NCBI GenBank assembly: GCA_003144275.1
Contig: NJBF01000034.1
Coordinates: 17,060-49,059, forward strand
DNA: 32,000 bases
Reading direction: 5' to 3'
Origin: Candidatus Heimdallarchaeota archaeon B3_Heim
Lineage (GTDB): Archaea; Asgardarchaeota; Heimdallarchaeia; Hodarchaeales; Hodarchaeaceae
Of the stretch, positions 9,511-32,000 are shown in pieces. Numbering within the stretch: the stretch's first letter is position 1; every line of letters starts with the position of its first letter. The position numbers and the translations under genes were made by a program. The notes beneath the pieces are model-generated. The model did not search any database. It had not been told where the DNA came from and saw nothing but the letters and a program-made list of their open reading frames with translations.

Positions 9511-10131
9511 ATGTCACGAGCAAAAATGGATTTCGCTGAGGGAATATTCCGCTCAAATTTCAAGGTGTGTGTGCTTGGTGATGGAGGGGTTGGTAAAACG
9601 GCAATTATTCAACATTTACTGGGTAGGGCGTTTACAACGAATTATCTACTTACCATAGGAACAGATATTTCGACATTTCAGCTTCATCATAATGGCAAAA
9701 ATCTTCGTCTGCAGCTTTGGGATCTGGCCGGCCAAACTCGATTTGATGTTGTTAGGAACTTGTATTTTAGTGGTGCTCGTGCAGGTGTTCTTGTTTTTGA
9801 CCTGACCCGTGAAACATCACTTCACTCCCTTGCTAAATGGAAAAAAGAAATCTTCAGCCATTCTCAACGAAAAGTTCCCCTACTTATACTTGGAAATAAG
9901 TCTGATTTGGATGGTTCTCATTTCTCCTATCTTGATCCTGTTGACAATTTCATCCAAGAGATTGAGAAAGAATACAATAATGAATATGAGAATAACGAAT
10001 TACAGGTTCCTTTTCACACAACTTCTGCCAAAACAGGTAATAATATCTTGAAAGCCTTTGATTCCCTTGGACAAATATTGTTGACCTATCAAAAACAGAC
10101 TAGTGCTATTCCAAAAATTCCATTGGAATAA
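9511..10131 (+). CDS. Rab-like small GTPase
   Basis: G1 GDGGVGKT, effector YLLTIG, G3 WDLAGQ, Rab-like FDVVRNLYFSGARAGVLVFDLT, G4 GNKSD, G5 TSAK. Confidence 0.92.
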   Translation: MSRAKMDFAEGIFRSNFKVCVLGDGGVGKTAIIQHLLGRAFTTNYLLTIGTDISTFQLHHNGKNLRLQLWDLAGQTRFDVVRNLYFSGARAGVLVFDLTRETSLHSLAKWKKEIFSHSQRKVPLLILGNKSDLDGSHFSYLDPVDNFIQEIEKEYNNEYENNELQVPFHTTSAKTGNNILKAFDSLGQILLTYQKQTSAIPKIPLE

Positions 10132-10770
10132 AAACTACCGTTATTCTCTTAGTACTTACCGTGAAAAGTAATCTTTCATTTCTTCCAAGTGAACGCTTCC
10201 TAAATTCAAGGAAATTGGGGAAATTGTTATTAGTTTCTCCTCTAGTAAAACGTAACTATCGGTATCAATAGGTAAGTTGCTTTGCACTTGGCCCCAAAGC
10301 CAGTAAACAGGAATATTCCGTGGATCTAAAGCCTCAATTGCTTTATCAACGTACTTGACAGGACAGAGTTTAACAACTTTTATCTTTGTTGTTAGATCAA
10401 CGCTATTGGGAAAGTTAACATTGAGAATTTTCACTGAATTTGGAAAAGGATTCGATAGAACGTGTGAAACAATTTCTTTGGCTCGTTTCGCTGCGATGTT
10501 AAATCTAGAAGAAGAATCCTGAGTTTTCTCGAAAAGTTCATTTTCAGGTAGTTCTAAGGAAAACGCAAATGATGTAATTCCCAAGATACCTCCTTCTAAT
10601 GCAGCTGCACAGGTGCCTGATGTGAAAATAGCATGAATTGAGGTATTATCACCATGATTTATTCCACTAAGGATGAAATCTGGGATTTTATTATACTGCT
10701 GCATACAAATTTTCTGACCAATGATTACGCTATCAGCTGGAGTACCATAAACAGAATAAGCCTGTATTTT

Positions 10771-10774
10771 CATG
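10771..10774. repeat. CATG target-site duplication / core, left copy
   Basis: Identical CATG at 11129-11132; one copy is needed to rebuild GAC ATG AAA in surE. A 5-bp TCATG reading is also possible. Confidence 0.75.
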
Positions 10775-11128
10775 ACTAGATTTGTCAGACAACTCTTGAA
10801 AAGAGTTCTGGACAGGATGAGTCACACATCCGCTATCCGGCAGATTAGCACCACTAAAAGGGTTACTATTCATTGGGACTACTTGAAGCATCCTTACTGC
10901 TGATATCCCCAGCGCTAATACCTCTCACGCCTAAAGGGTCATTCTTCTCTTGCCTTTGACAGGTAACTCGTCTCACGTAGTTACAAGTGAATAAAACCCA
11001 AGAATTTAGGAATTTTTCTTTTCATCACCTCGCTTGGAAGAGGTTATGGAGGGAGACTTTTTATGAATATAAGAGAGAGGGAGAGGTTAGCGAATACGAG
11101 TAATCTCGCTTTGTCGGACAAAAATGAT
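10775..11128. mobile_element. 354-bp non-autonomous (MITE-like) insertion with imperfect terminal inverted repeats
   Basis: Flanked by CATG at 10771-10774 and 11129-11132. Left end ACTAGATTTGTCAGACAA versus right end (reverse complement) ATCATTTTTGTCCGACAA match at 13/18. Precise removal restores the surE frame. No ORF of 60 aa or more inside. Confidence 0.85.
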
Positions 11129-11132
11129 CATG
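11129..11132. repeat. CATG target-site duplication / core, right copy
   Basis: Matches 10771-10774. Confidence 0.75.
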
Positions 11133-11386
11133 TCATCGAGAAATTTCTCTTTCGCCTGAATTCTAACTGGTTGAGTATATGTTACTGATTTTCCTTTTCC
11201 TGATTGCTGTGTGGAAGGAGCAACGACAATAATGTCTCCTAAAGAACTCATTTCTTTAACTAGTTCCTTTAATCCTACGGCTTCTATGCCATCATCATTT
11301 GTAACTTAGAATAGCAAATATCCCACTCTCAGGTGTTAATTTAACGATGTAAAATAATATCTCTGGCTTACTGATAGTTCAGACTT

Positions 11387-12289
11387 CTATTTCGCTAATT
11401 CTAATGTAAAAAGTGAATAATTATCAGTAATTTTTGGTTTAAATTGAACAAGAGTTTTAGCAATTTCACTACCTTCTTCTGTATTAAAATGCAAAGGGTA
11501 TCTTTCCCAACCAGCCATTTTACATTCACGTGCAATGTCAGTAAGTAAAAGTGGCCATGAATCTTCAAATCCTGGTCGTGTAGCAGTAAAGCGTAGTACA
11601 AGCCTTGGTTTATCACTTGAAGGCTGATCTAAAAGAGGAGCACTAGCACAAACATCCTGGGATTCTTGTGAAATAATAATACAATGGCCATCTTTCAAAA
11701 CTTTATTTTTAAAGTAATCTTGGAAAAATTCTTCAGTTAATCCTGCTTCTTGAAGCTCTTTATCGACTCTACCAAGCTCTATCAATGAATCTATGTCGGA
11801 AGTTGTAGCTAAACGCGATTTATATTTCGTTTTATCATCTAATTTTTGATTACTAAGTTTTTCTATATCAAAACTGTAATCTAATCCTTTTACTTTAAGT
11901 ATAAATCCTCTCTCTGTGAAAAATTCCCGAACCTTGGACCATTGAGTTTTTATCCAATATTGGATTTCATCTGGGTTTTTCGATTTTAAATAGACCAACA
12001 TATCTGAGAAGAGTTTATTCTGAACATCTGGAGAACAATCAGCTGTACACCAAGGGTAGCCAAGATAAAAAACTTTACTTGAAACCTGTGATGCCTGAAT
12101 ATACGCAAGGGGTTTATTCTCATCAGTAAAAGCGTATCGTAATAAGCGGGGGTCCTTTTTATTCTTGATAATTTTCTGTTCAATATCTACCGCACTAACA
12201 TTGCTCCCCGTATTGCTATTAAAAAGATCAGCTTGAATCCTCTCAAATCCCAATCCAGACTCGTAGAATTTATACTTAACATTCTCCAT
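11387..12289 (-). CDS. Hypothetical protein, probably tandem GNAT-like fold
   Basis: 300-aa ORF. Segments LAYIQAS...YLGYPWC...QNKLFSDML...VREFFTERGF and YKSRLATTSDIDSLIEL resemble two GNAT domains (pattern recognition only). Confidence 0.5.
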   Translation of the reverse strand: MENVKYKFYESGLGFERIQADLFNSNTGSNVSAVDIEQKIIKNKKDPRLLRYAFTDENKPLAYIQASQVSSKVFYLGYPWCTADCSPDVQNKLFSDMLVYLKSKNPDEIQYWIKTQWSKVREFFTERGFILKVKGLDYSFDIEKLSNQKLDDKTKYKSRLATTSDIDSLIELGRVDKELQEAGLTEEFFQDYFKNKVLKDGHCIIISQESQDVCASAPLLDQPSSDKPRLVLRFTATRPGFEDSWPLLLTDIARECKMAGWERYPLHFNTEEGSEIAKTLVQFKPKITDNYSLFTLELAK

Positions 12290-27521: not shown

Positions 27522-27701
27522 TTAATGTAAGAACTTCTTCAGGTCTTTTGGAGATGAAAGAAGGGATTCTAAAATTTTGAACTCTTTTCTATTTATCACC
27601 TCCGATGCTTAAGGATTTAATGGGAGGGGTCCTTTTAAGGCTTTCAGAGAGAGAGTAAGGTGAAAATGAGACTGGATATTTGTCGGACAAATTTGATCAT
27701 G
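27522..27701 (-). mobile_element. Degraded second end of the same element family as the surE insertion
   Basis: TTTGTCGGACAAATTTGATCATG (27679-27701) matches 11110-11132 at 21/23. Inward from it are a CT-rich tract, a TATA-like box and GGAGGTGAT at nearly identical spacing, then a short ORF MINRKEFKILESLL... Confidence 0.6.
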
Positions 27702-30776: not shown

Positions 30777-31646
30777 TTACTTCTTCCTCTGTCTTTTTGA
30801 AATAAGGAGAGCTATCACCAACGTGAAGATAGAGGATATCTCAAATAGATTCCAAGGGGAAATGCTAGGAATTGTAGTAGTAGTTGTTGTCGTTTTTTCC
30901 TTTGTTGTTGTGCTAGTCGTTGTGGTAGTCGTGTCTGTTGTTTCTTCTTCAGTAGTGGTTGTCGTCTCAGGAATTAACTTCATTACGTAAATTTCGGTTA
31001 AACCAATATTTCCTGCAGTATCCTTTGCATAGAATTGGATTTTAACCGTTCCTTCTGCTAATAAACTCCATTCTTCCTGGTCAATTTGTCCTGTGGTGCT
31101 ACAGGTGAAGTTTGTCATTCCATTGTCGATTGTATACCAGATCGTATCTAAAAACGCTTCAGTAATAATTATGTTAAAATTTGGTGCTAATGATTCAAAT
31201 ACGTCCATTGAACTCGGTGAGATTATTTCGATAACAGGATCATTGATATCCTTTCTAATAATGATTTCTCCAGATCCAATATTATTCATTGTATCATTTG
31301 CATAAAATTGAAGAGAAACAAGACCTGATTCCAATTTATCCCATTCAGCCTGATCTATTGTACCATTTATTGTGAAACTGGTATTTGTTAAACCATAATC
31401 TAGTGAATACCACATCTGATCTAGTTCATAGATTAGATCAATTTCCACATTGAAATCGGGGGCTAGTTGACGGAAAAATGAGTTGGTACTCGGAACATTG
31501 ATTTTTATCGCAGTATTGCAGAACATATCTTGAAAAATATTTTGTCCACTCTTCTCTGAATAAATACACTCAATATTACTATTTAATAGCTCGAATGATG
31601 AGTAAGTCATCATCGGGGAGTAATGACGGAGCTGACCCACAAGCAT
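30777..31646 (-). pseudogene. C-terminal fragment of an Ig-like-repeat surface protein, probably truncated by the adjacent IS
   Basis: Two repeats of APxFNxxI...LDxxWYxxDxGxTN...IDQxEW..L..GxVxxQFYAxDTxxNIG, a Thr linker, and a TM with basic tail. No signal peptide; the 5' part of the frame runs into the IS region. Confidence 0.6.
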
Positions 31647-32000
31647 TTAACTTCTGAGCCAAATGTTTTTCTATGTTCGCAAAACAAGAAATACACCCGT
31701 TAGAAAACGAACTCCGTCATTATCCATCACGGACAGTCCAAGTTTTTAAAACTACCCATCTGACCCGTATTCTCAGGAAACACATTCACGAGACAGATGC
31801 CGACAAAAATAGGAAAGAATTCAGCTGTGAACAGTGGATTAAAGGTCTTTTCTTGATGCAGATTCATAAGTTAGAAGCGGTACGACCCTTTGTGCGACAG
31901 CTAGAGCAAAACAAATCCTGGCAAAAGATTTGTAGTTATCAGGGAAACGTCCCAACTCAGGGGCAGTATTCCCGAAAAATTCCTGATGAAAGGATTCAGG
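31629..32000 (+). mobile_element. Left part of an IS element; left end approximate
   Basis: Transposase-like ORF preceded by GAGCTGACCCACAA, a candidate left inverted repeat. The right end is not visible. Confidence 0.5.
31673..32000 (+). CDS. Transposase N-terminus (IS4/IS5/IS1182-like), runs off the window
   Basis: ATG at 31673, open to the window end: ...EAVRPFVRQLEQNKSWQKICSYQGNVPTQGQYSRK resembles the DUF772-type N-terminal motif of DDE transposases. GC content and codon usage shift here. Confidence 0.7.
   Translation, partial: MFAKQEIHPLENELRHYPSRTVQVFKTTHLTRILRKHIHETDADKNRKEFSCEQWIKGLFLMQIHKLEAVRPFVRQLEQNKSWQKICSYQGNVPTQGQYSRKIPDERIQ

Follow-up and report, generated by a model that had tools for sequence, protein, structure and literature searches.

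The interrupted surE locus

The stretch of DNA analysed here (hereafter the window) comprises 32,000 nucleotides of contig NJBF01000034.1 of Candidatus Heimdallarchaeota archaeon B3_Heim, whose genome is a metagenome-assembled draft of 103 contigs with a completeness of 94%. A paralogue of the surE gene, located on the minus strand of the window, is interrupted by a short insert that encodes no protein, its longest sense-strand open reading frames (ORFs) being short remnants. Judged by sequence comparison, this insert is a protein-less deletion derivative of a tnpB-only (obligate mobile element-guided activity, OMEGA) insertion sequence (IS) of Hodarchaeal Asgard archaea.

Read along the minus strand, the surE sequence ...TTT CTC GAT GAC is followed by CATG (11132-11129), the hexamer ATCATT, the palindrome TTTGTCCGACAA (11122-11111) and an interior of ~320 nt, after which come a second palindrome, TTGTCTGACAAA (10792-10781), the hexamer TCTAGT and another CATG (10774-10771), where surE resumes with AAA ATA CAG. 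The insert proper is 354 bp in length (10775-11128), or 362 bp with both CATG tetramers (10771-11132). Its left terminal inverted repeat (TIR; 11111-11128, minus strand) consists of hexamer ATCATT (11123-11128) and palindrome TTTGTCCGACAA (11111-11122), and its right TIR (10775-10792, minus strand) of palindrome TTGTCTGACAAA (10781-10792) and hexamer TCTAGT (10775-10780). The two ends of this copy agree throughout the 12-bp palindrome and in two of the six outer bases. An initial annotation of the window had already placed the two surE halves on either side of a 354-bp insert between CATGs and had read each end as CATG, six nucleotides and TTTGTC-N-GACAA, and every coordinate it gave is correct. 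The palindrome TTTGTC-N-GACAA occurs six times in the window (both strands, at most one mismatch) against an expectation of 1.0, and none of 100 shuffled sequences reached six.

The 5′ fragment of the surE paralogue (11133-11326, minus strand, with a GTG start at 11326) corresponds to positions 3-56 of the Pfam SurE profile, and the 3′ fragment (10156-10773, minus strand) to positions 61-180. In the sister genome G013, the orthologue of the interrupted gene is a single open frame of 278 aa with no insert at the homologous point. Nucleotide identity to this orthologue is ~93-94% here (93% for the 3′ fragment), and it reads F-L-T-N-M-N-I-Q, with TATG in place of the window's CATG. Since the G013 gene is uninterrupted and carries a single tetramer, removal of the insert together with one CATG restores the correct in-frame join, as had been predicted, and the joint lacking the insert would read GATGACATGAAAATA. 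The paralogue also contains an in-frame TAA (11306-11308, minus strand) at codon 7, the corresponding codon of the G013 gene being TTA, and this stop is a second disabling lesion that is independent of the insert. As a second, intact surE occurs on another contig of the same genome, the copy bearing both the stop and the insert is a dispensable paralogue and now a pseudogene. The insertion into this spare surE evidently occurred after the split from the nearest sister genome, in a recent, lineage-specific burst. For annotation, the element family accounts for the split surE pseudogene and for many contig breaks.

A miniature repeat family

Approximately 22 full miniature copies of the element are present in this genome, with unrelated flanks and nearly all bounded by CATG. 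Relative to the 362 bp of the window copy, five full copies are 98-100% identical, ~11 are 73-79% identical and ~6 are 64-68% identical, and three further copies at 98-100% are cut by contig ends. Several contigs end within the element, making this copy number an underestimate. The family is short (362 bp), non-coding and multi-copy (~22), like other miniature inverted-repeat transposable elements (MITEs), and the early suggestion of a non-autonomous, transposase-less and possibly CATG-specific mobile element is supported.

Within the window subfamily, any two copies are separated by 0-9 differences over 362 bases, one pair at different loci being identical. The subfamily is missing from G013, where the best match is 79%, indicating that it expanded after the split of the two lineages. 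More generally, the end motif of the family was counted 62 times in this genome, 61 times in G013, 26 times in G073 and one to seven times in four more genomes of the same genus. Outside the genus, a search of the 83 genomes of the class gave a single one-mismatch hit, in one other genus, and a reversed control pattern gave none in the same search. The named genomes that carry relatives are Candidatus Hodarchaeota/Heimdallarchaeota metagenome-assembled genomes. Most public runs listed as containing the stretch are metagenomes from marine sediment, and no RNA run was among those listed.

In independent public runs, contig breaks fall precisely on the two ends of the insert. Among the contigs of four such runs, none crossed an empty surE allele and none contained a circle junction, so neither of these products, which the initial annotation had proposed to look for in reads, was recovered. 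A second empty-site comparison, between the copy on contig C67 and G013, found the element absent from an intergenic flank too diverged to define the junction, and in a third the flanks lie on different contigs of G013.

Several partial or unusual copies were also encountered. At 27573-27701 of the window (minus strand) there is a ~130-bp left-end fragment (CATGATCAAATTTGTCCGACAA...) that is 67% identical to the first 130 nt of the insert and has no right end nearby. Two 33-bp "solo" elements (G000:C8:64499-64531 and G000:C35:1462-1494), in which a left and a right end share one palindrome between two CATGs, look as if they arose by interior deletion between directly repeated palindromes. In a diverged miniature copy at G000:C82:62618, the right-end CATG runs into ATCAAATTTGAT, which opens with 10 nt identical to the start of a left end; no other relic of this kind, junction-like or left by tandem insertion, occurs in the genome. 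Finally, one run labelled metatranscriptomic contains a high-depth contig with the right end, although this is probably DNA.

The parent tnpB insertion sequence

The last ~115 nt of the insert match (~84%) the 3′ side of eight loci that have an ORF of 417-440 aa just upstream. The domains of this ORF, OrfB_IS605 (PF01385) and the Cas12f1-like TNB (PF07282), identify its product as TnpB, and five to six of the tnpB ORFs are intact, yet their protein sequences differ by 11-33%. Alignment of five loci delimits a ~1.42-kb element made up of CATG, ATCAAATTTGTCTGACAAC, a 150-nt leader, tnpB, GTTGTCTGACAAATTTAGT and CATG, and the 1.42-kb tnpB elements are bounded by the same left end, CATGATCAAATTTGTCNGACAAC. 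The family end sequence, CATGATCAWWTTTGTC, pairs with an inverted partner at the opposite end. In the parent, the ends form a 23-bp TIR with mismatches in two of the outer bases and in the middle of the palindrome (a match of ~20/23), and the palindrome TTTGTC-N-GACAA is part of this repeat. Such TIRs, common to the miniature copies and a longer parent, are a further property of MITEs.

Three parts of the parent are kept in a miniature copy: the leader at the left end, a hairpin block of 40 nt that lies within tnpB, and the terminal ~115 nt. The alignments demonstrate that the miniature form was made by internal deletions from the ~1.42-kb tnpB-only IS, which is found in a subset of one Hodarchaeal genus. 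What could initially be described only as an unnamed IS or MITE family can now be named as a derivative of a tnpB-only IS with the same ends. The tnpB parent had escaped the initial annotation, as had the in-frame TAA in surE and the guide RNA-like module described below. The full-length copies that it had proposed to look for have tnpB between those ends, and every family member seen is tnpB-only.

The interior of the left end (11018-11110, minus strand) is homologous to the parent leader in an alignment of miniature and full-length copies. It includes a CT-rich tract (11073-11085), an A/T-rich box (11057-11065) and GAGGTGATG (11018-11031), a degenerate remnant at the place of the parent's tnpB start codon. 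The leader presumably acts as a promoter. No consensus secondary structure was predicted for the left end, and neither a hairpin nor phased direct repeats were found in the left-end alignment.

The parent TnpB has RuvC and zinc-finger domains, as is characteristic of OMEGA systems, and its catalytic set is present: a RuvC-I Asp, a relocated Glu, CxxC..CxxC and a RuvC-III Asp. The canonical RuvC-II Glu is lacking, and the pattern instead is E-x6-CxxC-x15-CxxC-x6-D. A relocated glutamate has been described for Fanzors and their closest TnpBs (PMC10711439). Of the TnpBs inspected across genomes and metagenomes, the nearest to this one (53-86% identity) are encoded by solo tnpB genes, and those with readable ends carry the same kind of ends.

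Two additional observations concern the tnpB elements of this genome. On the opposite strand, an antisense frame beginning MSHTSAIRQ is open for 94-124 aa in several full-length copies, where it lies at the right ends (minus strand; e.g., L049:4952-5233 and L050:4904-5233), and for 43 aa in the insert (10772-10903, plus strand); its openness may reflect constraint on the sense strand. The genome also contains a second, unrelated tnpB family of eight copies (G000:C48:22888-24276 and seven other loci) with an HTH_OrfB_IS605 domain, and it is likewise found in a genome without a Y1 transposase.

A guide RNA-like module and an internal hairpin

The right-end module (10771-10885, minus strand) is common to the 3′ ends of the tnpB elements, ends at the element boundary and forms a putative omega (guide) RNA scaffold. 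Its helices lie at 10843-10871, at 10815-10831, at 10791-10807 (a variable hairpin) and between 10811-10814 and 10783-10786, and a possible pseudoknot pairs the loop GUGACU (10820-10825) with the terminal AGUCAU (10772-10777), all on the minus strand. The five-helix structure was tested for covariation on 31 distinct right ends, drawn from both forms of the element, miniature and full-length, in this genome and its relatives. In that set, 91.6% of cells pair, and sliding the 3′ partners by 1-3 columns lowers the figure to 30-46%. Compensatory changes on both sides were seen at 14 pairs, and the covariation score was reached by none of 500 shuffles. The helix at 10843-10871 covaries at eight of eight pairs and the hairpin at 10791-10807 at six of seven. 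Other pairings (GGATG/CATCC at 10815-10831, UGUC/GACA and the pseudoknot) are invariant and have no bearing either way.

A structured RNA that overlaps the 3′ end of tnpB and stops at the right boundary is a defining feature of OMEGA systems, and here it is retained in the miniature copies. Protein-less IS605 derivatives that keep an omega RNA and depend on TnpB in trans have been documented (PMC10055086), and by analogy the right-end ~115 nt would be a TnpB omega RNA that is made and used here. If the module were read through, the flank on the 3′ side of the right end (10751-10770, minus strand; surE AAA ATA CAG ...) would form the guide portion, as expected from the OMEGA/TnpB mechanism (PMC10055086; 10.1101/2023.11.20.567912).

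An internal hairpin domain (10937-10998, minus strand), whose core (10952-10986) shares homology with the part of tnpB that encodes RuvC-I, is the other conspicuous part of the insert. Conservation among the miniature copies peaks at the two ends and in this internal block (element positions 141-180, identity 0.85-0.94), and the same 30 nt constitute the top-conserved window of the full IS, at 0.99 versus a mean of 0.85 and above the guide-RNA core. In the full IS, the block sits in the tnpB reading frame at RuvC-I (positions 771-800, e.g., in L021). It folds as a GTAACT/AGTTAC hairpin with an outer stem, CTYG/CRAG, that covaries (CTTG/CAAG versus CTCG/CGAG). The 40-nt block is kept in all miniature subfamilies, and its retention needed two deletions rather than one, which argues for a function in cis. 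It may serve as an RNA domain, as a site of processing or as a place within the element where a protein binds.

Junction tetramers and the target rule

Target sites were tabulated, as the initial annotation had called for. In this genome, CATG is the junction tetramer at 30 of the 38 left ends and at 31 of the 38 right ends, and CATA recurs as a right variant. Single changes within the tetramer affect the outermost base five times, the base next to the element three times and a middle base three times. Five relatives were searched with the tetramer left free, and CATG was found at 62 of their 72 ends; the outermost base was changed, alone or with others, at 10/72 (C to T inward), and no end had an inner or middle change alone. 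The adjacent hexamers had initially been described as poorly conserved. Within a single copy the left and right hexamers are indeed unlike each other, yet from copy to copy each is well conserved (left ATCAWW at 31/38, right ACTANA at 35/38).

In all seven elements with a variant tetramer and both ends readable, the variant is one-sided (left CATG with right CATA, or left TATG with right CATG). Were all four bases duplicated, a variant should appear at both ends of an element, so CATG does not behave as such a duplication, and registers in which CA, TG, CAT or ATG is duplicated likewise predict paired variants. The only models that fit have a G at the left and a C at the right borne by the element, with at most the central AT common to both sides. 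In the window, the left junction tetramer (11129-11132, minus strand) would accordingly take its outer C from the target and most likely its inner G from the element, and the right tetramer (10771-10774, minus strand) most likely its inner C from the element and its outer G from the target. The target is Y-AT-R, with CATG preferred, and the junctions are Y-AT-G ... C-AT-R. The base before the target is A or C at 33/38, T occurring there only once versus a background of 32%, so T appears to be avoided at position -1, and the base after the target is A or G at 28/38. The one-sided, outermost flank variants favour the earlier idea of a recombinase-type insertion, and the AT core fits equally well with a shared core like that of IS607 and with a 2-bp duplication of the IS630 kind. 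With ~60 ends per genome, the family offers a natural set from which to read the target rule and probably also the TnpB target motif.

Two other proposals concerning the target were rejected. A 6-bp duplication of AAATTT was discarded, as this sequence is part of the inverted repeat in every copy and is not target DNA. Nor is there a preference for start codons (CATG containing ATG), since frames of at least 80 codons begin at 6/38 right and 4/40 left ends versus 13% of all CATG, with no enrichment.

The mobilising enzyme and rival explanations

Candidate transposases were sought both by domain and by element ends. No match to Y1_Tnp (PF01797) was found in this genome or in four of the five relatives that carry the element, and neither Cas1 nor IS630-type DDE_3 (PF13358) had a match in this genome. 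Clustering of multi-copy ORFs recovered three multi-copy DDE families and the second tnpB family; these, and a fourth DDE family with two copies, all have unrelated ends. The start of a multi-copy DDE_Tnp_1 IS (family of G000:C54:5872-7140) occupies 31587-32000 of the window, at the contig end, and its ends (CTCGAATGATGAGTAA...) are unrelated to those of the insert. Across the 83 genomes of the class, seven of which have these ends, inspection of paired ends turned up no longer element. Solo tnpB was also the arrangement in the nearest relatives from metagenomes and in those named Asgard loci that were inspected, and viral contigs gave one chance hit and no longer element. The sole serine recombinase of the genome is a classic resolvase adjoining a reverse transcriptase. 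At this locus (L031, G000:C2:5532-7731), a 183-aa resolvase/invertase lies tail to tail with a 416-aa ORF, recognised by eye as a reverse transcriptase, and the pair is possibly a module like a retron or a diversity-generating retroelement.

A link to IS607 emerges from TnpB itself. The family's protein shares 36% identity with a TnpB of G013 whose gene comes after that of a 195-aa TnpA, a helix-turn-helix (HTH) serine recombinase. This locus (L118, G013:C54:5509-8919) holds a genuine IS607-type pair in which the 195-aa TnpA overlaps a 402-aa TnpB, and its right end also follows a tnpB-only copy at G000:C33. In a 34%-identical bacterial relative, the N-terminus of the upstream ORF resembles, by eye, the HTH of an IS607-type TnpA. 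Together, the relocated glutamate, the 36% TnpB link and the bacterial relative point towards IS607. The IS607 copies of the sister genomes are too diverged to be delimited by copy comparison, and their right-end motif, ATTTGT..GATAAC, loosely resembles the family TIR but was not used as evidence.

Several lines of evidence weigh against a guide-RNA element moved by such an enzyme. No IS607-type serine TnpA was found in this 94%-complete genome, all family members seen in genomes and metagenomes are tnpB-only, and the IS607-type TnpAs present in sister genomes belong to elements with other ends, the G013 IS607 copy included. The family's near-perfect 23-bp TIRs at a fixed distance are also at odds with IS607, which is without TIRs and has phased direct repeats. 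As for the guide RNA, a search of Rfam at a permissive threshold gave only noise and no family match for either the insert or the full-length IS, and gene conversion with full-length copies could inflate the conservation of the shared blocks. On balance, an IS607-type serine transposase acting in trans is a tenable assignment that still falls short of being probable. Something else, not yet linked to TnpB, is a lesser possibility and should be thought doubtful, a TIR-binding DDE enzyme that makes a 2-bp duplication is somewhat less likely again, and a Y1 enzyme would be a considerable surprise.

The rival accounts of the element as a whole can be weighed on the same evidence. It is conceivable that the insert is a cut-and-paste MITE, moved by a DDE transposase encoded elsewhere that makes a staggered cut at CATG and leaves a 4-bp or a 2-bp (AT) duplication. 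The 23-bp TIRs and their fixed palindrome-to-end distance would suit such an enzyme, DDE-linked TnpB genes all have inverted ends, including those of an IS630-linked branch (PMC10691335), and the 2-bp version explains the one-sided variants as well as a recombinase does. The 4-bp version, however, predicts paired variants, which were seen in none of seven elements; moreover, the four DDE IS families of the genome (three of them multi-copy) have unrelated ends, no IS630-type DDE_3 domain was found, no longer element with these ends was found in seven genomes, metagenome relatives or viral contigs, and TnpB relatives with a neighbouring transposase have serine ones. An element of this kind is rather unlikely. 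The tnpB gene is most often found in IS200/IS605 elements, and the insert might alternatively move as single-stranded DNA through a Y1 HUH transposase, like the palindrome-associated transposable elements (PATEs), inserting 3′ of CATG and carrying a terminal CATG of its own. A tetranucleotide target, a conserved hairpin near the right end and a pyrimidine on the same strand at both palindrome centres would agree with this. Nevertheless, it is very improbable: no Y1_Tnp domain was found in this genome or in four of five element-carrying relatives, and it is opposed by ends that are true inverted repeats rather than same-strand hairpins, with 5-bp arms and a 1-nt centre too short for a stable hairpin. 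The right-end hairpin varies freely between subfamilies, which suits an RNA role over a protein site, the last base of the right tetramer varies (CATA) although this model would make it element-borne, and TnpB has the relocated-glutamate rather than the canonical form.

Two further accounts would deprive the insert of its status as a mobile element or of its effect on surE. An intron, whether a group I IStron or one of the archaeal bulge-helix-bulge kind, would leave surE functional; removal of the insert restores the frame exactly, and IStrons do join tnpB elements with introns (10.1101/2023.11.20.567912). Against this highly improbable reading, no intron family matched the insert (E up to 10) or the full IS (E up to 1), most copies lie outside surE between unrelated flanks, surE has a premature TAA and the ends form no bulge-helix-bulge. 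That a genome assembled from a metagenome into 103 contigs could contain a chimera, or that the sequence is a native, lineage-specific insert of surE, was also considered and is extremely remote. The same boundaries recur at more than 60 ends across this genome and at 61 in another, contigs of independent runs break at the same positions, and the G013 orthologue lacks the insert. The data on copies and boundaries already refute this account, which covers the assembly artefact against which the initial annotation had cautioned.

The explanation that accounts best for the evidence, and is quite probably correct, is that the insert is a miniature derivative of a TnpB IS that keeps a guide-RNA module and moves as double-stranded DNA via an AT core. 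Transcripts from the left-end leader would run through the right end into the flank and yield a guide RNA, which TnpB made by full-length copies would take up in trans. Cleavage by this TnpB of the vacated site, consisting of target motif and flank, would lead to restoration of the copy by recombination. Such cutting of vacated sites with restoration of the copy is known for the TnpBs of both IS605 and IS607. Movement itself would proceed through double-stranded DNA: a trans-acting enzyme would exchange strands inside the central AT of Y-AT-R (CATG preferred), and the element would take along the G adjoining its left end and the C adjoining its right end.

Understood in this manner, the insert works like a MITE- or PATE-type parasite of a TnpB transposon and is a known kind of mobile element, with unusual aspects in its inverted-repeat ends, its CATG-centred target and the lack of a recognisable transposase in the genome. 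It is also conceivable, if hardly likely, that the family represents a distinct IS architecture, with TTGTC-N-GACAA inverted ends, an AT core in CATG, a cis-acting hairpin inside tnpB and an enzyme not yet linked to TnpB (an unlinked recombinase, one borne by another mobile genetic element, or a new type of transposase), in which case it would be neither IS605 nor IS607 nor IS630. The majority of tnpB genes are orphans that lack a neighbouring transposase, and their mobility is only partly understood. The present family burst recently (copies 0-2.5% apart) in a genome without a visible cognate transposase, and its end architecture fits neither of the two established families of TnpB transposons. 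Its Hodarchaeal/Heimdall Asgard host and Fanzor-like glutamate bear on how RNA-guided nucleases entered inverted-repeat transposons.

Flanking genes

The interrupted surE is adjoined by a gene for a small Ras/Roc/Arf-type GTPase (9511-10131, plus strand), of a kind that is common in Asgard archaea. A 300-aa ORF at 11387-12289 gave no match in Pfam.

Comparison with known systems

Of the established systems, IS607 (including IS607, IS1535 and CboIStron) has several features in common with the family. The family's TnpB has the relocated-glutamate form, and its only transposase-adjacent relatives sit beside IS607-type TnpAs. In both, an identical short core is found at the two junctions and in the target with no true long duplication, and scarless excision is possible in IS607. 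Both also have imperfect subterminal inverted repeats and, at the right end, a guide RNA, putative in the present family. IS607 has GG at both ends and in its target, the motif recognised by its TnpB (TGGG) falls on the insertion site, its insertion leaves no true duplication, and its subterminal inverted repeats are imperfect (PMC6188088; 10.1101/2023.11.20.567912). The core here, however, is AT within CATG rather than GG, and no family member seen has tnpA, so that two defining features of IS607, the TnpA and the TIR-free ends, are lacking.

PATEs resemble the insert in that the miniature keeps the ends and the guide-RNA module and would need both TnpB and a transposase in trans (Meers et al., PMC10055086), although PATEs have same-strand subterminal hairpins and move as single strands through Y1, in contrast to the inverted repeats and missing Y1 of this family. 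Symmetrical inverted ends are found in DDE-linked TnpB elements of the IS630 branch (PMC10691335) and in Fanzor2 transposons with TIRs and target-site duplications (PMC10711439). IS630 elements further use a palindromic tetranucleotide (CTAG) whose central dinucleotide is duplicated, and Fanzors have a similar placement of glutamate. Unlike these systems, the family has no DDE gene linked to it or found in this genome, and its dinucleotide is AT, not TA, with no TA in the tetramer. Finally, the family resembles prokaryotic MITEs in general, which are small, non-coding, multi-copy and deletion-derived and have inverted ends with a short constant flanking repeat, but it differs from them in that its parent is itself non-autonomous (tnpB only) and that the miniature copies have kept a structured RNA module and a conserved internal hairpin.

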